A stretch of DNA of 64,000 nt from an uncultured bacterium (GTDB lineage: Bacteria > Fidelibacterota > Marinisomatia > Marinisomatales > UBA1611), in contig CAZEER010000003.1 in the NCBI GenBank assembly GCA_964511215.1, forward strand, positions 6,457-70,456. The letters are read 5' to 3'. Below, piece after piece: positions 11,549 through 22,450 of the stretch. The notes under the pieces were generated by a model. It did no database searches and was not told where the DNA came from. It saw only the letters and a program-made list of their open reading frames with translations. The first letter of the stretch is position 1; the number at the start of each line of letters is the position of its first letter. The translations under genes and the position numbers were made by a program.

Positions 11549-12103
11549 TTACACTTTTAAATAAGATTCAGGGTTTTCCCATTCACCCTTTTCCCATTTA
11601 AAACTCTTAGTTTTATCTACTAAAATTTGTCCATCATTAGCAAGACTAATTTTAAATCGTTCTAATGGTCTAGGAGCAGGACCTTCAAAATGAATACCTG
11701 TCATCCTAAAACCACTGCCATGACAGGGACATTTAAATTTTGATTCTACCGGAAGCCAATTAGGCGTACATCCTAAGTGTGTACAAACCGTTGAAAGAGC
11801 AAAAATAGATTCTTCATCTCTGACAATCCAAGCATTAAACTGTTTTTTAAATTTTATATCAACAGAATTTTTAGAAAAATCATCAGGATAACCAATTTTA
11901 AAAGTCTGAGGTGGTTCAAATAAAACATTTGGGAAAAGAAAACGAACAATGATTGTAAAAAATCCCCCAGTAACCCCTAAATATGCTAGCCAACCAACAG
12001 ATAGCCAGCTTAAGAATCCTCTCCTATCAGTTTCAGTACCTTTGTATGCATTATCAGGAGAAGATCCTACTGCGGCATTTGGAACCATTTTTTCTTCAGA
12101 CAT
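11549..12103 (-). CDS. Rieske [2Fe-2S] iron-sulfur subunit
   Basis: CTHLGC and CPCHGS boxes are at the correct spacing. There is an N-terminal TM anchor preceded by RRGFL (Tat-like). Confidence 0.92.
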   Translation of the reverse strand: MSEEKMVPNAAVGSSPDNAYKGTETDRRGFLSWLSVGWLAYLGVTGGFFTIIVRFLFPNVLFEPPQTFKIGYPDDFSKNSVDIKFKKQFNAWIVRDEESIFALSTVCTHLGCTPNWLPVESKFKCPCHGSGFRMTGIHFEGPAPRPLERFKISLANDGQILVDKTKSFKWEKGEWENPESYLKV

Positions 12104-12106
12104 AAG

Positions 12107-12988
12107 TTAGATAACCTTATCGTAATTTTTCTTTAATGTTTTCATTGCAGCATTTCTTATTTTAAGATTTTCATCTGACTTTGCCAGATGCACAAGTTTT
12201 GGTTTAAACCTTAGATCATTAATAATCGAGGTTGCTTCAATTGCGGTAAGAATGACTCTTGTAATTTCATTATAGTCAAGCTCTGGGAAGGTCAACAAAT
12301 ATTCTCTATCCATAAGATTCTCAATAACTGAGACAGATGATTTCTCACCCATCTTTGCCAAGGCGATTGCAGCATCCCATCTAATATTTGGTTCATTATC
12401 AATTAAAAGTTCATTTAATACCGGTATAGATTTTTTGCTACCAATGAAGCCTAAAGACATAGTAGCAGCTAGACGTTCATCCTGATAGTCCGAGTTTTTG
12501 ATAATCTTGATTAATTCAGACACTGCCGTACTTGCTTTTACCATTCCCACAGACTGAATAGCTGCTAAACGAGATTCTCGGGATTGGTCTTGTAGACCAT
12601 TTAACAACTCTTCTGAATAAAAACTGTCTCTTGTTGCGCCCATTGCAATCGCTAAATAAGCACGTACAAGTGGGTCGTCATTGACAGCATGTTTATAGGC
12701 AGATATCATTTGGCTCTTAAAAGCAGGGTCACTGGGCACTGTCTCAGGATTATTTAACACTTTGGACAATTCATAGGCAGATTGCCATCTTTTAGTTGCA
12801 GATCCAATTTTAACTTGATTTAAAAGTGCAGAGGCATCTTCTGTTTCATATGTAATAAATCTAAATAATAGGAAAAATACTGCACCGAAGATTGCAATCA
12901 TAAATGGAATAAGAAAAAAAGAATAGAAGAGTGTGTAGATACGACTCGAATCATTTTTTTCCATTTCTATAGTTGTTGCGTTATTCAT
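12107..12988 (-). CDS. Membrane-anchored HEAT-repeat protein
   Basis: One N-terminal TM helix followed by repeated (I/V)R..AA.ALG..G units: VRAYLAIAMG, SRLAAIQSVG, ERLAATMSLG, IRWDAAIALAKMG, IRNAAMKTL. The stop is 3 nt from the Rieske start. Confidence 0.75.
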   Translation of the reverse strand: MNNATTIEMEKNDSSRIYTLFYSFFLIPFMIAIFGAVFFLLFRFITYETEDASALLNQVKIGSATKRWQSAYELSKVLNNPETVPSDPAFKSQMISAYKHAVNDDPLVRAYLAIAMGATRDSFYSEELLNGLQDQSRESRLAAIQSVGMVKASTAVSELIKIIKNSDYQDERLAATMSLGFIGSKKSIPVLNELLIDNEPNIRWDAAIALAKMGEKSSVSVIENLMDREYLLTFPELDYNEITRVILTAIEATSIINDLRFKPKLVHLAKSDENLKIRNAAMKTLKKNYDKVI

Positions 12989-13040
12989 AAAGCTAAAAAT
13001 TAGGTGGTGAATTTATTCTATAATCTTTTCTAAGAAAAAA

Positions 13041-13214
13041 CTAAATATCATTTTTATTTTTTTTATTATTGTTGTTTAGTTGTTCAAGATCTTGTCGAAG
13101 TATACGAGTCAATCTTGAAAGTTTACGAACATCTTTTTTCACTTTTACTAGTTCATTGACGAGAATCATTGCAAATACAAGAACCAAAAATGAAATGATA
13201 GGGAGAGCATCCAA
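13041..13214 (-). CDS. Unlisted mini-ORF, 57 aa, single TM plus charged tail (TTG start inferred)
   Basis: My translation is (M/L)DALPIISFLVLVFAMILVNELVKVKKDVRKLSRLTRILRQDLEQLNNNNKKNKNDI. It is in frame one codon after the preceding mini-ORF stop. No ATG would preserve the TM helix. Confidence 0.35.
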   Translation of the reverse strand: MDALPIISFLVLVFAMILVNELVKVKKDVRKLSRLTRILRQDLEQLNNNNKKNKNDI

Positions 13215-13217
13215 ACT

Positions 13218-13364
13218 TTAATCCTGTTCTCCTTTTTCACTCTTTTTTTTGAGTTGCCACCCTAAGAGGACAGGAAAAAAAAACAATATAATGCAACTCA
13301 CTGCAAGTAAACCGACAGCCCATTCTAGGTTTCGCATTAGCCATTCCAGAGTCAACCATTCCAT
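13218..13364 (-). CDS. Unlisted mini-ORF, 48 aa, single TM
   Basis: My translation is MEWLTLEWLMRNLEWAVGLLAVSCIILFFFPVLLGWQLKKKSEKGEQD, checked codon by codon. It has an ATG start and a TAA stop. Confidence 0.4.
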   Translation of the reverse strand: MEWLTLEWLMRNLEWAVGLLAVSCIILFFFPVLLGWQLKKKSEKGEQD

Positions 13365-13377
13365 ACGCTAATTATTA

Positions 13378-13485
13378 TTAGAATACCCAAGTGACAAGGG
13401 TAACATATACTAGGAGTAATGCAGTACAGGCTATCATTGAAATGACCTGAGTCTTAGTAACGGTATGTTTAGATGTTTCTGACAT
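13378..13485 (-). CDS. Unlisted mini-ORF, 35 aa, single TM
   Basis: My translation is MSETSKHTVTKTQVISMIACTALLLVYVTLVTWVF. The ATG lies 2 nt after the stop of the 437-aa ORF. Confidence 0.4.
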   Translation of the reverse strand: MSETSKHTVTKTQVISMIACTALLLVYVTLVTWVF

Positions 13486-13487
13486 TG

Positions 13488-14801
13488 TTATTTTGCTGAT
13501 CTTTTTGCTTTTATTACTGCAGACTTAATTTTTCCGCGTAGTACTCTGTTTTCTAGGGCATTAATCTCTTCCATATCCCCTGTAAGGCCTTTAGCAACCA
13601 ATCTATCCAGTAATTCTTCATCTGTTTCTTTTTTTGAGGAACCTTCATTGTTTGGCGAGGTTGATTCATTCGTAGATAACTTAGGCATGGGCGGTCTTTC
13701 TATGGATCCTCTATTTATTTTCACCATCATTGCCTTTGCTTTACCTCTAATTATTTTATCATCATGACTGTTTACTTTATCCATGTCTCCATCAAGCCCT
13801 ATATTGACAAAGTAGGCAACTAATTCATCTTTAGATAGCGAAGAAATACCTCCGCCAGAAGTAGTAGTAGTTCCAGCAATTGGTTTTTCAGGGCAAGGTG
13901 GTATTATACCTGTTCTTTTTGATTTAACAATTCCCGCTTTAGCCATTCCACGTATTGGCTTTTGAGGAATAGCATCTACATAATCCATATTGCCTTTTAT
14001 ACCCATATTAATTGCATAATCAATATAGTCTTGTCTAGATGAAAACCCTCCATCTTGTGATGTATTATCCGTACTATCATTGACTTGCTCATCATCAGAT
14101 AAAAAATCTACTTTGGGGATAATGCGATCAAGGTTTTGTAAAATTTTTGCCTTTTCGTTCCAATTCAGCTGACTTAAAATCGATAAAAGACCTTGAGATG
14201 AGCGAGTACAGGTTACCCAGACTCCATAATCGGATTCACGGATTGAGAATTGGATGTATTCCATCATAAATGGATTGTTTCTAAATGTGAAGCCAAACTC
14301 TTTCTCCTTTTCAAGAGTCATAATCCTACATTCAAACCAAGGTGCAATCGTTTTTGGCCGAATTTTGAAATAGTTACCAGGTTTTAATTCTAAATGATCA
14401 AAAGAATATTGATGTACATAACGCTTGGTATCTATAACTGGTAATGCGCGCTGTATACCATAAAACCAGACATTATACATTTCCAAGGATGTTAGCATTT
14501 CCCATATTATTTCTTTTGTAGTAGCAAAATGATGTTCTACTTTGCTCTCTCCTTTGAAAGGGCTCCACTCATTCCATGATATTCCAATGCCATTGTCAGG
14601 TACAGGGGGTATTTTTAGCGTTGCTTCTTTTTGTTGAAAACCATCTATTTCTAAATCTTTTAGAGAATGGTGCTCAATCCTGCCATCTGGAAACTCAAGC
14701 TCATACTTTGTTGGGTAAAAATAAATCTGTTTAACAGTACCTTCTTGACCAGTTTCGCGAACAGTACAGGATGTTCCTAATTTTATTCTATTGAGAATCA
14801 T
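13488..14801 (-). CDS. Hypothetical protein: small N-terminal beta domain, SRPBCC-like middle, three C-terminal ~45-aa repeats
   Basis: Track ORF and first gene of the bc operon. The three repeats are DYIDYAINMGIKGNMDYVDAIPQKPIRGMAKAGIVKSKRTGI, DELVAYFVNIGLDGDMDKVNSHDDKIIRGKAKAMMVKINRGSI and EELLDRLVAKGLTGDMEEINALENRVLRGKIKSAVIKAKRSAK. The SRPBCC call is from pattern only (IIWEMLTSLEMYNVWF ... EKEKEFGFTF ... VWVTCTRS). Confidence 0.75.
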   Translation of the reverse strand: MILNRIKLGTSCTVRETGQEGTVKQIYFYPTKYELEFPDGRIEHHSLKDLEIDGFQQKEATLKIPPVPDNGIGISWNEWSPFKGESKVEHHFATTKEIIWEMLTSLEMYNVWFYGIQRALPVIDTKRYVHQYSFDHLELKPGNYFKIRPKTIAPWFECRIMTLEKEKEFGFTFRNNPFMMEYIQFSIRESDYGVWVTCTRSSQGLLSILSQLNWNEKAKILQNLDRIIPKVDFLSDDEQVNDSTDNTSQDGGFSSRQDYIDYAINMGIKGNMDYVDAIPQKPIRGMAKAGIVKSKRTGIIPPCPEKPIAGTTTTSGGGISSLSKDELVAYFVNIGLDGDMDKVNSHDDKIIRGKAKAMMVKINRGSIERPPMPKLSTNESTSPNNEGSSKKETDEELLDRLVAKGLTGDMEEINALENRVLRGKIKSAVIKAKRSAK

Positions 14802-14811
14802 TATTTATTTT

Positions 14812-14825
14812 TTGATTTATATCAA
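14812..14825. promoter_or_regulatory. Perfect FNR/CRP-family consensus box TTGAT-N4-ATCAA
   Basis: The sequence TTGATTTATATCAA reads directly at 14812-14825. It lies in the 142-bp divergent region between the bc-complex operon (ATG at 14801, minus) and ctaA (ATG at 14944, plus). Confidence 0.45.
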
Positions 14826-14943
14826 ACTATTATGAAAAAAATAGTTTTAAATAGGTCCGTAAATTAATCATTTGTATCATTTTCTAAAGTGGAAAAGTTA
14901 TGCATAATGACTAAAATAATATTTTTAACTTATCGGCTCTTAT

Positions 14944-15876
14944 ATGCGATTATTTCGAACGTTTTCATTTATATCTACTGCGCTGACGTATCTATTAATT
15001 TTTATCGGGGGTCTGGTTCGTGTCTCCGGAGCGGGTATGGGTTGCCCTGATTGGCCGAAATGTTTTGGTCGTTGGATTCCTCCGACAGACTTGAGCCAGG
15101 TTCCATTGCAATATTTTGACCAATTCAATATAGTTCTAGCTTGGATTGAATACTGTAATAGACTTTTTGGAGCTTTAGTGGGTCTGACCATAACACTAAC
15201 ATTAGCGATAGGTTTAAAATATTTTTCCCATATCCCAACTATCAAGTGGCCAATAGTTATTGCATTTTTTCTAACATTAATAGAAGGTTGGCTTGGTTCG
15301 GTATTGGTAGATACAGTACTTAATCCTTTCACGATTACTCTACATTTACTTTTGGCATTAATTATAGTTATGCTGTTGTTATACTCTTCGCAGGAGGCAT
15401 ACTACTTGGAGAATCCTAAGGCTGAAGTTTTAAGCAAATATCCTGAAGATATAGGCTGGCTTTTTAGTTTAATTTCCATTGCCTTAATTATAGAAATTAT
15501 TTTAGGTACTGAAATACGTGGAGGTCTAGAAATAATCCGTAAGGAAAATCCCATGGTGGAATCAGAGTTTCTACTGCAGATGCTTGGTCCTTTCAAATAC
15601 GTCCATACCATTCTTGGATTTGTAATTACCGGTTTATCTGGACTTCTATGGTATAAACTAGTAAAAAAATCTTTTAATCCCTCAGTTGTGGTTATACAAT
15701 CTTCCACTGCAATTCTGGTTTTTATTATGATACAAATTATCTTGGGTGAGATGCTAGTGTTTTTAGAGATAATACCTCTTATTCAATTGTTTCATCTTTG
15801 GATAGCATCCTGGATACTTGGTTTGGTCAGTATACAATATTGTGCATGGAAAAAATCAAGACTTATCTATGAATAA
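14944..15876 (+). CDS. ctaA: Haem A synthase (COX15/CtaA family)
   Basis: The N-terminal RVSGAGMGCPDWPKCFG motif is typical of CtaA/COX15. It has eight TM helices and conserved His residues in the helices. Confidence 0.9.
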   Translation: MRLFRTFSFISTALTYLLIFIGGLVRVSGAGMGCPDWPKCFGRWIPPTDLSQVPLQYFDQFNIVLAWIEYCNRLFGALVGLTITLTLAIGLKYFSHIPTIKWPIVIAFFLTLIEGWLGSVLVDTVLNPFTITLHLLLALIIVMLLLYSSQEAYYLENPKAEVLSKYPEDIGWLFSLISIALIIEIILGTEIRGGLEIIRKENPMVESEFLLQMLGPFKYVHTILGFVITGLSGLLWYKLVKKSFNPSVVVIQSSTAILVFIMIQIILGEMLVFLEIIPLIQLFHLWIASWILGLVSIQYCAWKKSRLIYE

Positions 15877-16456
15877 GATATTTTATTATACTTTATTTAT
15901 TATAGTTCTAATGGGGGTCGGTGCAAGTTGGGTAATTCAGAAAGCTAGATTTTCTCATGATTTACCAGTAATAAAACTGGTCCCAGATTTCTCATTTACA
16001 AATCAATATGGTGAAATTTTCACTCAGGATAATTTAAGAGGTAAGGTTTCAGTTTTAGATTTTTTTTTCACTAGCTGTGCTGGTCCCTGCCCAATAATGA
16101 CCTATAATATGAAAGAACTGTACAATGATTTTTCCCAAATAAATGAAGTCCAGTTTATTTCAATTACTGTTGATCCAATTCTAGATACAAAACTAAAGCT
16201 TAAAGAATATGCAGATATTCAGGGTGTCTATGATAAGCGTTGGCAGTTTTTATTTTCAGATCTGGAACAGATAAAAAATCTAAAGAGAAATGGGTTTATG
16301 CTTTATGCTGATCAATTACCACAGGGACACGCAATTAAATTTATTTTGATTGATGAGAATGGTAAGATTCGAAAATATTTTGATGGAACTGATGATGCCA
16401 GTCAAGCAGTATTAAGAGAAAATATTACACATCTCCTAAGAAATTTTAAATCATAA
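15869..16456 (+). CDS. SCO1/SenC family copper chaperone / thiol-disulfide oxidoreductase
   Basis: FFFTSCAGPCP (CxxxCP), ISITVDP and the conserved His in GHAIKFILIDENGKI. The start is reassigned to MNKIFYY (ATG 15869, TM anchor), which overlaps the ctaA stop. The track start at 15818 lies inside ctaA. Confidence 0.85.
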   Translation: MNKIFYYTLFIIVLMGVGASWVIQKARFSHDLPVIKLVPDFSFTNQYGEIFTQDNLRGKVSVLDFFFTSCAGPCPIMTYNMKELYNDFSQINEVQFISITVDPILDTKLKLKEYADIQGVYDKRWQFLFSDLEQIKNLKRNGFMLYADQLPQGHAIKFILIDENGKIRKYFDGTDDASQAVLRENITHLLRNFKS

Positions 16457-17338
16457 ATGAAGAGAAGACCCAAGCAGGCAGGCAGTTTATCTGAAGCTTA
16501 TTTTGAATTAACAAAACCTTCCATTACTTTTTTGATACTAGTATCAACAGCATTAGGCTATTACCTGGGAGGGAATGGTATATCAATTTATTCGCATTTT
16601 CTTTTCACATTGTTAGGATCTTGCCTTGTCTCTTCTGGTGCTGGGGCATTAAACCATTATATGGAAATGGAATCTGATGCATTAATGCATCGCACACAAT
16701 ATAGGCCGCTTCCTACAGGTATGATCTCTGGAGTTAGGGCTATGGTTTTTGGTCTTACTTTGATTTTTTCAGGTGCTATAATCCTCTATACATTAATTAA
16801 CTCTGTCACTGCTTTATTAGCTCTAGTGACAACTGCTATGTATCTTTTTATTTATACTCCTCTTAAAAAATTTACCTGGCTTAATACATCAATTGGAGCA
16901 ATACCAGGTTCTATTCCACCATTGGGAGGGTGGGCTGCTGCAACTGGGAACCTAGATCCTGAAGCTTGGATTTTATTTGCTATTTTATTTTTATGGCAGC
17001 ATCCACATTTTTATGCAATTGCGCTAATGTGTAAGGATGATTATAAAAAAGCAAATTTGAAAATGTTACCAGTTATAGAGCCTGATGGAAAACGGACAAA
17101 CAGGCAGATTATCTGGCATTCTATTTTGCTAATTCCTGTATCAGTTATGCCCGTATATATTGGTCTTCTTGATACGTTTTATTTTTATATGGCGCTGGTA
17201 TTAGGTTTGGGGTATATGTTGTCAGGTATTTTATTAGCCAGACAATACAGTATTGACAATGCTCGTTTTGTTTTAAAAATGTCAGTGCTATATCTACCTG
17301 CTCTTTTTATAACAATTATAGTGGATAAATTTTTATGA
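16457..17338 (+). CDS. ctaB: Protohaem IX farnesyltransferase (haem O synthase)
   Basis: UbiA-family polytopic protein with GAGALNHYMEMESDALM (N..D...D) and the QHPHFYAIA motif typical of CyoE/CtaB. Confidence 0.93.
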   Translation: MKRRPKQAGSLSEAYFELTKPSITFLILVSTALGYYLGGNGISIYSHFLFTLLGSCLVSSGAGALNHYMEMESDALMHRTQYRPLPTGMISGVRAMVFGLTLIFSGAIILYTLINSVTALLALVTTAMYLFIYTPLKKFTWLNTSIGAIPGSIPPLGGWAAATGNLDPEAWILFAILFLWQHPHFYAIALMCKDDYKKANLKMLPVIEPDGKRTNRQIIWHSILLIPVSVMPVYIGLLDTFYFYMALVLGLGYMLSGILLARQYSIDNARFVLKMSVLYLPALFITIIVDKFL

Positions 17339-17850
17339 AGAATGAAACGTTTTGGACTCGTATTATTATTGTAGTTTCTATAGTTATTAGTTTAGTAGTG
17401 GCTTTTCTTATACTTGGTCCTAGACCAGAAGGAATTGAGGGTATGGTTGATGTCTCGATATTACCTTTAATTAATGCTTCTTTAAATGCTATTACAACTT
17501 TTCTATTATTAGTGGGATATTTTTTTATAGTACGAAAAAATATTGAAGCTCATAAAGTTGTTATGTTGACTTCGTTTGGTACATCATCACTTTTTTTAGT
17601 GAGTTATGTTATATATCACTGGTTTAAAAGTGGTCCAAAAATTTACATTGGGAATTTTCATACAGTTTATTACATTATATTATTTAGCCATATAATACTG
17701 GCTGCGCTTATCATACCACTGGCTCTTTTTACACTTTATAGAGGTTGGGTGACAGATATAAAAAGACATAGAAAGATTGCACGAATCACACTCCCACTCT
17801 GGCTTTATGTATCTGTAACAGGTGTTATTATATATCTAATGCTTTACTAG
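17335..17850 (+). CDS. DUF420 membrane protein (CtaM-like oxidase accessory factor)
   Basis: 171 aa with four TM helices. The pattern INASLNAITTFLLLVGYFFI...H is typical of DUF420. It overlaps ctaB by 4 nt, and its position after the cta genes matches Firmicutes CtaM. Confidence 0.7.
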   Translation: MKNETFWTRIIIVVSIVISLVVAFLILGPRPEGIEGMVDVSILPLINASLNAITTFLLLVGYFFIVRKNIEAHKVVMLTSFGTSSLFLVSYVIYHWFKSGPKIYIGNFHTVYYIILFSHIILAALIIPLALFTLYRGWVTDIKRHRKIARITLPLWLYVSVTGVIIYLMLY

Positions 17851-17869: not shown

Positions 17870-20800
17870 TCAAATTATTTTTACTAAGCCGCCAAATTTT
17901 TTATTAATCTGGAATCCCTGTTTGGCAAAAAACCTTTGGGCATAAAAGCCAACTGTAATGATCTCTATATTTCTATGTTTCATACGTTTATATAGGTCAG
18001 ACATTAGACGCTTACTCAAAAAAATATTTTGATATTTTTCTTTTATTACTACCCATTCGAGATGAATCCTATTTTTTCCCAGATTTTTCCAGTATAGACC
18101 TCCAACAAGCCGGTTCCTACTATTGAATGAAAATAGAAATTCATGCTCTGCAGTAAAAACCGCTGATAATGAAGAGTCAGAAAGCAGCGTATGAAATTGT
18201 GCGATTTCTTTAGGAAGGAATGGTGGTCTAATACGATACAATTTACCATCCTTACATTCAGTTTGATAAACTAAGTCAATACGAGCTTTGTCTCCTATAG
18301 TGGTCGTGACAAGTTCTACATAGTCAGCAGCATCAATGTGAGGGAAAAGCATTCTAGCAAGGAAAAACTTTTCACTTTCATTTAATTCTACTGTGGTTTG
18401 GATGTCTGAAATACGATCTTGGATATTCCAGGGACTAAGTTTATTCTCTCTTAGATCCTTAATCAGAGAGCGGAATTTATTCGTAAGATCAGGGTTCTCA
18501 TCTTTAAAGCAAGTCATCATAAAAAATCTTACACGAGTTTCCGGATATTCATCTAATAATCCATCTAATTCATAATCTTTATATAATTCCTGCAAGATTG
18601 ATGCTTTAGCATTAAGAGTAGCCTCTTGATTCAAATCCAACCAGCGCTCATATCTTAGAGATGCGAATACTACAGGCTTTGTTAATACTCCAAAATGATC
18701 TATCTCATTCAAAAATTGATTGATCCTATCTTTTGTTAATCCAACTAGTTTACATTTCTTTTTAACTTTATTATCGTCCATTTCTAGTTTGAGTTCTTCA
18801 AGAATGTTTTTACCTTTTTTAACTTTTAGCGCTTGAATTGTTGCAGAAAAAATAACTTCCCAATCTGACATATGTGTCAGTCCACTGTATCTTTTTTCAG
18901 TTTTTATAATATAATCTGTGTATAAAGACAAAAAATGCTCTGCCAATGAAACCATAGGTTTGCGACCAGAAATTGATATCAATCTTGTACCAGTTTTATA
19001 GTCATGTTGAGGTATAATTAAATTATTAGGTACTGGTGGTTGAATTGATAATTTATAATATGTTTTCCGCCAGAATTCTTGATAGGCTTGTATACCATTC
19101 CAGATAAAATGTAGCCACCGCATTTGCCAGCGGTCAACTTTAGTTCGATCGCTTATATCATTTTCATTTCGTTGTAAATAAGTAGCTAAAGTTTCGCCTT
19201 GTATATATTCTTCAGTATATAGATGCTGCTCAGGCCAGTATCCACCGAAATTTTCCACTAATTGATGACCTTTAAAACTCGAGCTCATGGTAATTAACCA
19301 CTTTACTTCTTCATCGATAAATTCACTGTCCCAACCTTCATTTAGGTTTATTACCACATTATGTGTACCAAAATTTCTTGTTTTCATCAGTACTCTGAAT
19401 ACGCTTTTGTTATTGCGACTTCCTAAGTGTGTGATCCAAATACCATTTTTACTTATATCATTGAGCCCTATTAAATAGTGTTTTGAAAATAAGAAAATTG
19501 ATTCTCTTATCAGCGATGTTTCAATAATAGCGTTTAAGATGCGTTTTTTATGTTTTTTACGCACATTTTCATCAAATGTAACAATATCTTTCCAGGTATA
19601 TTCTTGCCCTGTATCAGGGTCAATGGTAATTGTCGCTGATTTCCCTATCCATGTTCGAAATCCGTTTACTAAACTGTAATACCCTTTCTGTACGGTAGAG
19701 TGGATAGGTTTAGGTATATCAGACAATAACCACCTTATCAATTCAGATCGTGACCACACAAATCGTGTTGGATGAAGTGTCCCGTATTCAGCTAAAAGCA
19801 GTAATAATGTTTTAATAAAATCTTGTTCATTCTGCTCAACCTTTATTATGTCTTGGTGGCTCTTATAAAGATATTCCACTATGGATTTGAAATGATCATC
19901 ATTAGTGCGCTTTATATCAAATCTAAATTCTTTCGTGGGATCAGATTTTTTTTGAAAAAGATATGCTTCTCGAAGCATTACAATAAAAATACTCCCTGAA
20001 AGCAAAGGCGAAAGTGACTCAACTAGTTTAACGCGAAAAATAGGATTAGAATGATCTTGGTAGTTTAAAAAAGTGTCAATTATCACATTAGACCAATTAC
20101 TAGAAGAGTTACCTGTGATAGTATCAAGAGTTTCAAAAACAGAAATATCATTATTTATAAAGGAATTAACTGATTTATGAATACTGAATAAAAGGGTATC
20201 AATTTTTTCAGAAGATAATTTTGATGAGCTAGATAATTGAGCTAGAGTCTCTAGCCTATTGATTTTCAGAGAGCTGTTTATTTTTGCTTCTTTTAATCTG
20301 TAGATGGAGCTTCCTGTGAAATTGGAAAAATTAAAATTACCTAGCCATAGGCTAGGGCATTGTATTACAGTTTCTAAGTCTAGGATATTTGTAGTAGAAC
20401 TATAAAAAAAGTCACCCATTTGGATAGTGTTTTTTGACCATTTCAATATTAATGATCTATCCTGATCAGAAGTAGAAATAGAATTACCATCCCAAGAAAG
20501 GTTGCTTTTTACTGTTCCAATTTCTCTCAATAGCCAGTTTGGTATTTTAATTTCTTTGGAACCATAATAAAGCGATAAATAATTTTTTTCATAAAGGGGG
20601 CTGATTATATGATTAAAATTTTTTAAAATTGTTTTCCGTTTGAATGTACCTTTCTGAGTTATTTCACCTTTCTCTTTGGAAAAATTTCGTTGAATAATTA
20701 CATAATTCACTATTCTTTCAAAAGGTGAAAGAAAACTATTAACTGAAAGAATCATTGAACTAAAAATTTCTCTAATTTCATCATCATTTAAAATATCAAA

Positions 20801-22450
20801 TTGGATTGATGACTTTTTATAATCGGGGTAGATAAGTACTGAATTAAACTCAAGTCCATCTCCAATAAGAAATACGGATTTTATTAATTCAAAATCTTGA
20901 AAAAGATTTTCTATTTTTTGAGGGGCGATAGTTTGCCCTCGACTATTTTTATAGATATCCTTTTTTCTATCAATTATATAATAATGGCCGCTATCTTCAC
21001 GAAAGATATCTTCGGTGTGGAACCAATTATCTTTAAAAATATCAAGATTTTCTTCTTTATAATAGCCTTCGGTAACATAAGGACCTTTTAAGCAAAGTTC
21101 CCCATCTTCTTCTAATTTGAGTTTAATACCCGGAAGAGCTTTACCTACAGAATCTCTTTTATATTCTCCTGGGGGTGTCATGGTAATTCCTCCAGTTGCT
21201 TCCGTCATACCATAACCACTTAGTAGATTGATTCCATAGGATTGGAAAAATACAAAGATATCTGGATCAAGATACCCAGCAGCCGAGAGTCCTAATTTGA
21301 GATTTCCACCTGTTATATTACTTAAATGATTCTCAATAATTGATTTATCTTCAGAAGAAAGATCTAACTGACTTTCAAGTAAATCATATAATTGTTGCCA
21401 CCTTTTTGGGATACTTATGAATATTGTAGGGTTAAAAACCTTAAAATCATTTAATAAGGAATTAAAAGCAGGAGATCCAGCGAAAGAATATGATGCTCCC
21501 CAAAAAATACTTCCCATTAATTCAAAAAATCTTCCAAACGTATGGAAAAGAGGTAGATAAGCCAAAAAAATATCATTTGAACTTATTTTAGGCAAAGCTA
21601 ACGCGCGTGCAAAACGTTTACTAACTAAATTCAATTGGTTGAAGATGATACCTTTTGGGTTTGCTGTTGTTCCAGAAGTATACATAATCGTTTGGACCAT
21701 TTTCATATCAACACTCATGAGACGTGAATTACTATCAAAATTAATTTCCTCGTCACCACGTTCTAAAAATGTTTCCCACTGATTGACATTATCTTGATTA
21801 ATAGCAGATTCATCCAAAGAAATAAAATTAATACTGTGTTTATTTTTAACTTCGTTCAAAAGCCTCATGGCTGTCTTACCCCCTACAAATAGGTGAGTGA
21901 TTTCTCCGTGTGTAATAATATATGAAACATGTTCTGAAGTTGAGTTTAGTGGTATTGGTATAACGCGGATTCCAAATGACAGGCACGCTAAATCCAAAAA
22001 AACTCCATTTAATTGATTATGGGTAAGTATTCCAATTACAAGCTGCTTATCGGATTTTTCAAGAGTAGATAAGGCTTTACCTACTTCAATTACTTTTTGC
22101 CAGAGAGTAGAATAAGATACAGTATGAAGTTGTCCATCTTCGATAATATTTAAAGCAGTTTTTTTATTATAAGTCACAGATCTTTGTTGTAAAATATATC
22201 CAACATTGTATTTTGATTTTTTAATTAACTCGATTATTTTTTTGAGCCAGATATCTCTTTCATTAGATATGGATATAGTTTCAGAGACTATACTTAGATG
22301 GGCAAGCTCCAACATTTGATGTAGGATATTTGCATTTGGACTTTGGCTTAAACAATCGTCTAATAGTTGCATCAAATCATCTAAATTGAGATTATTTTTT
22401 TCAGCCAATTCTCTTGTTTTACTAATTCTTAATTGAAGATTAGAAGACAT
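17870..22450 (-). CDS. 1526-aa multidomain protein: N-terminal ANL adenylate-forming ligase, ~750-aa unassigned middle, C-terminal GNAT-like domain
   Basis: The ANL motifs are YTSGTTANPKGI (A3), GYGMTEA (A5), DIFKDNWFHTEDI (A7) and YIIDRKKDIYK (A8). The C-terminus reads VGGLYWKN...IHLEWVVIKEKYQNIFLSKRLMSDLYKRMK...VGFYAQRFFAKQGF, a GNAT beta4-alpha3 ... FY.K.GF pattern. Confidence 0.85.
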   Translation of the reverse strand: MSSNLQLRISKTRELAEKNNLNLDDLMQLLDDCLSQSPNANILHQMLELAHLSIVSETISISNERDIWLKKIIELIKKSKYNVGYILQQRSVTYNKKTALNIIEDGQLHTVSYSTLWQKVIEVGKALSTLEKSDKQLVIGILTHNQLNGVFLDLACLSFGIRVIPIPLNSTSEHVSYIITHGEITHLFVGGKTAMRLLNEVKNKHSINFISLDESAINQDNVNQWETFLERGDEEINFDSNSRLMSVDMKMVQTIMYTSGTTANPKGIIFNQLNLVSKRFARALALPKISSNDIFLAYLPLFHTFGRFFELMGSIFWGASYSFAGSPAFNSLLNDFKVFNPTIFISIPKRWQQLYDLLESQLDLSSEDKSIIENHLSNITGGNLKLGLSAAGYLDPDIFVFFQSYGINLLSGYGMTEATGGITMTPPGEYKRDSVGKALPGIKLKLEEDGELCLKGPYVTEGYYKEENLDIFKDNWFHTEDIFREDSGHYYIIDRKKDIYKNSRGQTIAPQKIENLFQDFELIKSVFLIGDGLEFNSVLIYPDYKKSSIQFDILNDDEIREIFSSMILSVNSFLSPFERIVNYVIIQRNFSKEKGEITQKGTFKRKTILKNFNHIISPLYEKNYLSLYYGSKEIKIPNWLLREIGTVKSNLSWDGNSISTSDQDRSLILKWSKNTIQMGDFFYSSTTNILDLETVIQCPSLWLGNFNFSNFTGSSIYRLKEAKINSSLKINRLETLAQLSSSSKLSSEKIDTLLFSIHKSVNSFINNDISVFETLDTITGNSSSNWSNVIIDTFLNYQDHSNPIFRVKLVESLSPLLSGSIFIVMLREAYLFQKKSDPTKEFRFDIKRTNDDHFKSIVEYLYKSHQDIIKVEQNEQDFIKTLLLLLAEYGTLHPTRFVWSRSELIRWLLSDIPKPIHSTVQKGYYSLVNGFRTWIGKSATITIDPDTGQEYTWKDIVTFDENVRKKHKKRILNAIIETSLIRESIFLFSKHYLIGLNDISKNGIWITHLGSRNNKSVFRVLMKTRNFGTHNVVINLNEGWDSEFIDEEVKWLITMSSSFKGHQLVENFGGYWPEQHLYTEEYIQGETLATYLQRNENDISDRTKVDRWQMRWLHFIWNGIQAYQEFWRKTYYKLSIQPPVPNNLIIPQHDYKTGTRLISISGRKPMVSLAEHFLSLYTDYIIKTEKRYSGLTHMSDWEVIFSATIQALKVKKGKNILEELKLEMDDNKVKKKCKLVGLTKDRINQFLNEIDHFGVLTKPVVFASLRYERWLDLNQEATLNAKASILQELYKDYELDGLLDEYPETRVRFFMMTCFKDENPDLTNKFRSLIKDLRENKLSPWNIQDRISDIQTTVELNESEKFFLARMLFPHIDAADYVELVTTTIGDKARIDLVYQTECKDGKLYRIRPPFLPKEIAQFHTLLSDSSLSAVFTAEHEFLFSFNSRNRLVGGLYWKNLGKNRIHLEWVVIKEKYQNIFLSKRLMSDLYKRMKHRNIEIITVGFYAQRFFAKQGFQINKKFGGLVKII

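Follow-up and report, generated by a model that had tools for sequence, protein, structure and literature searches.

The DNA analysed here, called the window throughout, is a stretch of 64,000 nucleotides from an uncultured bacterium of the Fidelibacterota (Marinisomatia; Marinisomatales; UBA1611; GenBank assembly GCA_964511215.1, contig CAZEER010000003.1). Its minus strand carries an open reading frame (ORF) for a protein of 437 amino acids (aa), followed by the genes of a Rieske/cytochrome b complex that resembles cytochrome b6f (Table 1). An earlier reading of the letters, the original prediction, had placed this ORF correctly and had called it operon-leading. The layout agrees: a divergent intergenic region of 142 nucleotides (nt) separates it from ctaA, and eight more genes follow downstream, all on the strand of the ORF and spaced by 2-52 nt. 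This layout suggests that the gene is co-transcribed with the b6f-like complex, which is part of what we consider the best explanation. No terminator-like site was found on the operon strand within the scanned positions 12000-15200; promoter and terminator counts around the ORF are not above those of shuffled sequence, and an Rfam scan of 12900-15000 yielded no credible match.

NCBI holds a protein identical to the product of the ORF (P0001). Among its 371 homologues there is no functional name; the named ones are called "hypothetical protein". Those bearing an organism name are assigned to Candidatus Marinimicrobia, a name that resolves to Fidelibacterota in NCBI taxonomy. The protein has neither a hydrophobic segment (the maximum of KD19 hydropathy is 0.79) nor a signal peptide and is, therefore, predicted to be cytoplasmic.

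Table 1. Position of the 437-aa ORF, its domains and the surrounding genes in the window.
Feature	Residues	Positions	Strand	Remarks
437-aa ORF		13488..14801	(-)	ATG start
Small five-strand beta domain	1-56	14634..14801	(-)	AF2 secondary structure
SRPBCC/START (helix-grip) domain	71-230	14112..14591	(-)	AF2, Foldseek, Pfam
Repeat 1	254-298	13908..14042	(-)	followed by conserved PPxPE tail
Repeat 2	322-366	13704..13838	(-)	followed by ERPPMPK tail
Repeat 3, C-terminal type	392-437	13491..13628	(-)	
s35, 35-aa single-helix membrane ORF		13378..13485	(-)	2 nt past the stop codon of the 437-aa ORF
s48, 48-aa single-helix membrane ORF		13218..13364	(-)	
s57, 57-aa ORF		13041..13214	(-)	TTG start; N-terminal membrane helix, then basic helix
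HEAT (PBS-lyase-like) protein, 293 aa		12107..12988	(-)	N-terminal membrane helix
Rieske [2Fe-2S] protein		11549..12103	(-)	
Cytochrome b6-like protein, 264 aa		10724..11518	(-)	
Subunit IV-like protein, 372 aa		9592..10710	(-)	matches C-terminal part of cytochrome b
Cytochrome c, 999 aa		6584..9583	(-)	eight CxxCH motifs; last gene of the run
Divergent cluster ctaA (haem A synthase), SCO1, UbiA-family gene, DUF420		14944..17850	(+)	
2x[4Fe-4S] ferredoxin, 108 aa		3759-4085	(-)	
1526-aa protein		17870-22450	(-)	

The domain layout was taken from an AF2 model built on an alignment of 91 homologues (mean pLDDT 79). Residues 1-52 form five strands, with a helix of three residues preceding the last one (pLDDT 71-88). 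They are followed by a helix-grip domain of the order beta2-alpha2-beta6-alpha (residues 72-226, pLDDT about 90) and by three units of three helices each (residues 256-297, 324-363 and 394-436, pLDDT 85-90). The connecting stretches 235-248, 308-317 and 377-391 stay below a pLDDT of 50. The linker sequences given in the original prediction could be confirmed as ...PPCPEKPIAGTTTTSGGGISS... and ...ERPPMPKLSTNESTSPNNEGSSKK... The protein is thus composed of a beta domain and an SRPBCC domain, to which three dipolar modules are joined by flexible linkers rich in Pro, Ser, Thr and Gly. Pfam offers no family match for residues 1-56; by inference from the model, the topology of this beta domain would be SH3-like, as in the electron-transfer accessory subunits PetP, NdhS and PsaE. 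A divergent homologue (P0122) retains the beta domain; its contig of 1.6 kb is without context.

For the middle region a START/SRPBCC fold had been predicted, and a Foldseek search had been recommended to check it. The fold is borne out by the AF2 layout, by Foldseek and by Pfam across the relatives. Foldseek found 287 matches in the PDB at E <= 1e-3; among the 50 matches listed, most are named SRPBCC proteins, the best being PYR/PYL (E 1.6e-7), and SMU.440 and MLL2253 align with TM 0.72-0.77. A profile search of the PDB with the middle domain likewise retrieved Mll2253 (E 0.004). When 17 diverse middle domains were compared with Pfam, 11 matched Polyketide_cyc2, 10 Polyketide_cyc and eight AHSA1, with best E-values of 1.5e-7 and 8.5e-7; the CoxG family (PF06240) was absent among the matches of these 17 domains at E <= 0.1. 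Across the relatives, Polyketide_cyc2 was matched down to E 7.7e-9 and Polyketide_cyc down to 5.3e-8. The residues that are invariant in the superfamily (W100, W112, G142, P154, P177, E181 and F185) are mostly aromatic, proline or glycine, E181 being the one polar residue among them. No His or Cys is conserved across the superfamily of the middle domain.

The C-terminal part is made up of three repeats of about 45 residues, as had been noticed before. Their pairwise local alignment scores are 76-95, compared with 20-23 +/- 4.5 for shuffled sequences (z = 14-16), and a hidden Markov model of the repeat recovers exactly three units from the whole window (E 5e-23 to 2e-20). The original prediction had the location right and the extent wrong: what it called the C-terminal third amounts to 42% of the protein. 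It had also recognised no named domain in the repeat, which agrees with the absence of any Pfam or NCBIfam match; there is no sequence match in the PDB either, and a fold search of the PDB yielded nothing better than E = 5. Its comparison of the repeats with HeH domains found no support. Neither 40 diverse repeat units, searched up to E 10, nor the three repeats of the window matched SAP, HeH, LEM or Rho_N.

A single unit modelled from the 40 diverse copies (pLDDT 93.9) has helices at positions 3-15, 19-23 and 28-44. Its consensus reads xxDxhIxxhVxKGLxGDMDxINxIxDKxxRGKAKAxhVKAKR, in which K35 is fully conserved and R31 and K40 almost fully. The first 27 residues bear a net charge of -2 to -7, the third helix one of +6 to +8; judged by this distribution, each unit is an electrostatic dipole. 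An EF-hand reading of the GDMD loop was rejected, since across the units only the last Asp is conserved. A conserved PPxPE tail follows repeats 1 and 2. The copy number varies: in 120 homologues there are three copies in 99, four in 19, and five and two in one each. The extra copies of the four- and five-repeat homologues are near-identical duplicates of the repeat-2 type; in P0012 and P0006 the unit and its linker were duplicated in tandem, which makes the expansion a recent and recurrent one. The types of repeat go by position: repeat 3 is nearest to the last repeat of the membrane-anchored distant relatives described below, while repeat 2 is the type nearest to the repeats found on NuoC. 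A repeat-only profile search of a set of 5.8 billion proteins gave proteins of 28-79 aa only; those inspected proved to be C-terminal fragments of the family or pieces of frameshifted NuoC genes rather than stand-alone modules, and were discarded.

The strongest functional clue, absent from the original prediction, is the occurrence of the module on two subunits of complex I, NuoC and NuoI. In P0203, two repeats precede a Complex1_30kDa (NuoC) domain (Pfam E 4e-38). In P0231 and P0344, two repeats at the C-terminus come after 2x[4Fe-4S] domains of the Pfam Fer4 families. P0344 matches NuoI models of NCBIfam with E-values down to 5.7e-31, yet without reaching their curated cut-offs, and its gene occupies the nuoI position in its operon. 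NuoC accordingly carries the module at its N-terminus, NuoI at its C-terminus. Among the 120 best relatives of the NuoC fusion, 119 have the repeat, 30 in one copy, 85 in two and four in three. The fusion genes reside in nuoABCDHIJKLMN operons of 11 subunits, which lack nuoEFG, and among the loci seen the module is on NuoC or on NuoI, never on both. Via named cluster members, the NuoC, the NuoI and the membrane-anchored loci belong to Marinimicrobia/Neomarinimicrobiota.

Single loci show some peculiarities. One Marinimicrobial contig (L042:185-11745) contains two 11-subunit nuo operons in tandem, the first with the repeat on NuoI, the second with an unmatched 45-aa ORF between nuoB and nuoC. 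N-terminal repeats in one to three copies are seen on Marinimicrobial NuoC in L043:6001-6723 and L039:7829-8156; in the latter, a long-read contig, the NuoC gene is frameshifted and the repeats show up as separate ORFs of 62 and 51 aa. The NCBIfam NuoC model NF005832 aligns over the repeat region of P0404 but scores no higher there than with the NuoC domain by itself; homology is not concluded from this alignment. The repeat is also joined, in single copy, to DegT, AdoHcyase, Cpn60, enolase, formyl transferase and hexapeptide transferase. These cases, each of them a single short metagenome protein, were left unused, as they are probably chimeric gene calls; fusions to formyl transferase, hexapeptide transferase or sequence of no known kind occur among P0206, P0200, P0186, P0193 and P0211, each being one metagenome protein.

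The family also has distant members. An exhaustive profile search of 1.84 billion representative proteins gave only 205 hits at E <= 1e-3. The distant full-length relatives retain the SRPBCC domain, together with two to five repeats; in place of the beta domain they have an N-terminal hydrophobic helix (KD19 1.8-3.2). Their genes have an SSF transporter, a hydrolase and two M16 peptidases as neighbours in L040 and L051, and penicillin amidase and pyruvate dehydrogenase genes in L041; DHFR is among the downstream neighbours. Whether homologues always sit beside Rieske and cytochrome b genes was a check suggested by the original prediction, and the answer is divided: the orthologues do so in all 29 loci that can be judged, the anchored distant relatives do not.

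These 29 loci are the ones that extend far enough among 38 fetched, of which 35 are GTDB species representatives. The order of genes is the same in every one of them: the gene under study, s35, s48, s57, HEAT, Rieske, cytochrome b, the subunit IV-like gene and the 999-aa cytochrome c. The three small ORFs had been overlooked in the original prediction. They fill what appeared to be a gap of about 500 nt after the 437-aa ORF. Intact s35 is present in 32 loci, s48 in 31 and s57 in 30, and the differences at the first, second and third codon positions are 0.32/0.13/0.56, 0.29/0.11/0.52 and 0.43/0.20/0.59, respectively. Substitutions thus rank third > first > second position, which implies coding sequence under purifying selection. 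Their annotation is incomplete: in the three annotated loci inspected, the gene calls caught one of the three each. In NCBIfam none of them reaches a curated cut-off, the 48-aa ORF having two weak and unrelated sub-threshold matches. The resemblance to PetG/L/M/N is one of size, single membrane helix and operon context only; on these grounds the three may be small subunits of the b6f-like complex.

The cytochrome b is closer to b6 than to its bc1 counterpart. It matches b6 with E 1e-40, as compared to 5e-24 for bc1 cytochrome b, and its C-terminus, ISGPL, is the same as in b6. Its Cys64, in the motif WCMGGLS, falls on the cysteine that b6 has in its FYCLGG motif, which we take to be Cys35, the residue that binds haem c_n covalently at the cytoplasmic side. 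Judged by this cysteine, the b6f-like complex probably has a c-type haem at its cytoplasmic side. The 999-aa cytochrome c holds the place of cytochrome c1 or f; it begins with a membrane helix and contains a long stretch that resembles a coiled coil. The HEAT protein is of the phycobilisome-lyase type (HEAT_2 E 1.6e-22; NblB and CpcE/F weak), and its gene is found in every related locus whose contig reaches that far.

In the divergent cluster, the UbiA-family gene, so assigned from homologous loci, is taken as a putative ctaB (haem O synthase). Further along the same respiratory island come CusF-SCO1, the 2x[4Fe-4S] ferredoxin, COX1, COX3 and COX4. The ferredoxin gene lies directly upstream of COX1-COX3-COX4. 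Haem-copper oxidase operons do not usually have such a partner; in three related loci (L001-L003) the gene calls show an Fe-S gene at the same place. The 1526-aa protein starts with an AMP-binding region that resembles acyl-CoA synthetases and has an acetyltransferase domain at its C-terminus. In L002 its gene adjoins the haem A/O cluster, and in L001 it is split into several genes.

How do these proteins compare with known systems? For the SRPBCC pocket the closest precedent, by analogy, is CoxG, a membrane-anchored SRPBCC protein that shuttles menaquinone and docks via basic residues (PMC13525633; bioRxiv 10.1101/2024.01.09.574806). Common to both would be an SRPBCC domain at the cytoplasmic membrane, where an anchor is present in the distant relatives of our protein, and the service to a respiratory enzyme. 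The two differ in several respects. The best Pfam matches of the present family are Polyketide_cyc2, Polyketide_cyc and AHSA1 rather than the CoxG family. The anchor of CoxG is C-terminal, that of the relatives N-terminal, and the window protein has a beta domain and no membrane helix. CoxG lacks tandem three-helix repeats, and the gene context is a b6f-like operon instead of cox genes. Polyketide_cyc (PF03364), matched by 10 of the 17 middle domains, is presumably the Pfam family of Coq10. Coq10/PasT provides a further precedent for an SRPBCC quinone protein (PMC13525633). The fold is shared, and so may be the handing of quinone to respiratory complexes, as proposed by analogy; Coq10/PasT is, however, a single-domain protein, whereas the window protein reaches no Pfam cut-off and has two extra kinds of domains.

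For the beta domain a parallel may be drawn to PetP, an SH3-fold protein that sits on the cytoplasmic face of cyanobacterial b6f, upon the PetG/L/M/N picket fence near haem c_n (PMC9342900). In both cases a small beta domain goes with a b6-type complex whose parts include small single-helix subunits, putative in our case, and the cysteine for haem c_n. The sequences are not similar, though, and the SH3 fold of the present domain comes from predicted topology only; moreover, PetP is a stand-alone protein of about 10 kDa, while here the domain makes up the first 56 of 437 residues. The repeats, finally, recall the E2 component of the 2-oxoacid dehydrogenases, in which peripheral-subunit-binding and lipoyl domains are strung on flexible linkers rich in Pro, Ala and Ser. 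This is an architectural analogy: small independent domains of about 35-45 residues, flexible linkers, a copy number that varies between species and electrostatic docking. The repeat matches E2 neither in sequence nor in fold, and the biological context is unrelated.

The SRPBCC fold, then, is of a kind already known. The repeat module, its presence on NuoC and NuoI, the three-part architecture of the 437-aa protein and the three small subunit candidates appear to be undescribed in the family libraries and the literature searched.

We tentatively favour the view that the 437-aa protein is a membrane-peripheral accessory at the cytoplasmic face of the b6f-like complex, which would handle a hydrophobic ligand such as quinone and dock via the module it shares with complex I. 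The SRPBCC pocket would take up a hydrophobic ligand from the membrane, most likely an isoprenoid quinone, in the manner of Coq10/PasT and CoxG. The beta domain could make up for the loss of the membrane anchor if it attaches to the complex from the cytoplasmic side; it may rest there on the three small single-helix subunits, as PetP does on its picket fence. The dipolar modules would act as tethered electrostatic docking units for an acidic surface or partner, and their docking target would be one that the peripheral arm of complex I needs as well. By analogy with these precedents, a role in quinone handling or tethering, as had been surmised in the original prediction, is plausible.

A number of observations weigh against this view. 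The only Pfam match of the window protein itself is AHSA1, whose score of 18.5 bits falls short of the gathering cut-off (22.1 bits), and the SH3-like view of the N-terminal domain has predicted strand topology as its sole basis. The synteny comes from a single phylum with orthologues that are 51-69% identical, and it may partly mirror ancestry instead of functional coupling. The fusions to NuoC and NuoI co-occur with the present protein at the level of the phylum only, the contig records being unbinned metagenome. The membrane-anchored relatives are found in a conserved non-respiratory locus, with SSF-transporter, hydrolase, DHFR and M16-peptidase genes, which suggests that the unit of SRPBCC domain plus repeats is not intrinsically tied to a bc complex.

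The last point leads to a different reading, which we consider possible though not likely: a general lipid- or quinone-transfer protein of the membrane surface, with no specific tie to Rieske/cytochrome b, whose operon position was inherited within the phylum and whose repeats hold on to anionic membrane. Relatives with the same body in a non-respiratory place, synteny evidence that is all from one phylum and the strongly basic third helix of the repeat are what it would predict. It does not sit well, however, with a distance of 2 nt between the stop codon and the start of the next gene, nor with an order that is invariant in 29 of 29 loci. The anchored relatives retain their two to five repeats despite having an anchor of their own; anchoring alone, therefore, does not account for the repeats. 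Further, NuoC and NuoI carry the module although they already are part of a membrane complex, and a repeat that is near-neutral overall, because its front half is acidic, fits a plain polybasic membrane binder poorly. The same lysine-rich third helix, in a layout of helix, loop and basic helix, would suit nucleic-acid-binding repeats of the HeH/SAP type, by which the protein would link DNA or RNA to the membrane; the structural label of the original prediction leads to this reading. We hold it to be most improbable. It is already weakly refuted by the failed searches for SAP, HeH, LEM and Rho_N (40 units, up to E 10) and for a PDB fold, and the fusion to NuoC and NuoI makes nucleic-acid binding implausible.

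Two readings start from redox chemistry and cofactors. The repeat might capture an acidic soluble redox partner, ferredoxin or flavodoxin: the copies on NuoC or NuoI would feed a complex I devoid of NuoEFG, and those of the 437-aa protein would deliver the partner near haem c_n at the cytoplasmic face of the b6f-like complex, as has been suggested for the Fd-FNR/PetP site of b6f. The electron donor of NuoEFG-less complex I enzymes is unknown (PMC7002350), and the module-bearing operons lack nuoEFG. Among the loci seen, the module occupies NuoC or NuoI and never the two together, which points to a function that concerns the entire peripheral arm. In addition, the basic residues of helix 3 are conserved, a cysteine for haem c_n is present in the b6-like cytochrome, PetP occupies the Fd-FNR site proposed for b6f, and a 2x[4Fe-4S] ferredoxin gene belongs to the same respiratory island. 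Nevertheless we judge this unlikely: the partner has no direct support, and neither the joining of the module to a lipid-pocket domain nor the membrane-anchored copies away from respiratory genes would be explained. Quite unlikely, in our estimate, is a cofactor chaperone or assembly factor whose SRPBCC pocket carries haem, be it for haem c_n attachment or for haem O/A traffic, together with the HEAT protein. The gene has ctaA-SCO1-ctaB to one side and the b6f-like operon to the other, the cysteine to which such a haem would be attached is present in the b6-like cytochrome, and a HEAT protein of the PBS-lyase type is encoded in the operon. A precedent for an SRPBCC haem chaperone, however, was not found in the literature searched; the superfamily has no conserved His or Cys, E181 being its only invariant polar residue; and nothing connects the repeat of NuoC and NuoI with haem.

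A further reading of the module, which we regard with considerable doubt, would make it a phylum-specific respiratory tag. Through a common partner or by binding to each other head-to-tail, with the acidic face against the basic helix, the copies on NuoC or NuoI and those on the 437-aa protein would physically tie complex I to the b6f-like complex at the cytoplasmic side; alternatively, a shared electron donor would be recruited.

In the dark ocean and in oxygen-minimum zones the Marinimicrobia (SAR406, Fidelibacterota) are an abundant group, of which hardly any member has been cultured. Their b6f-like complex seems to have four extra parts without a model in the family libraries searched, namely the 437-aa protein and three small membrane subunits, and an unclassified mobile module links three respiratory proteins, NuoC, NuoI and the SRPBCC protein. 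Should the module serve for docking, it would be relevant to the question of what feeds the NuoEFG-less complex I (PMC7002350) and to the hand-over of quinone by SRPBCC proteins beyond the cases of CoxG and Coq10 (PMC13525633). If the coupling of the complexes or the recruitment of a shared donor should turn out to be true, it would amount to a novel organisation of the respiratory chain, in a phylum that ranks among the most abundant uncultured ones of the sea.

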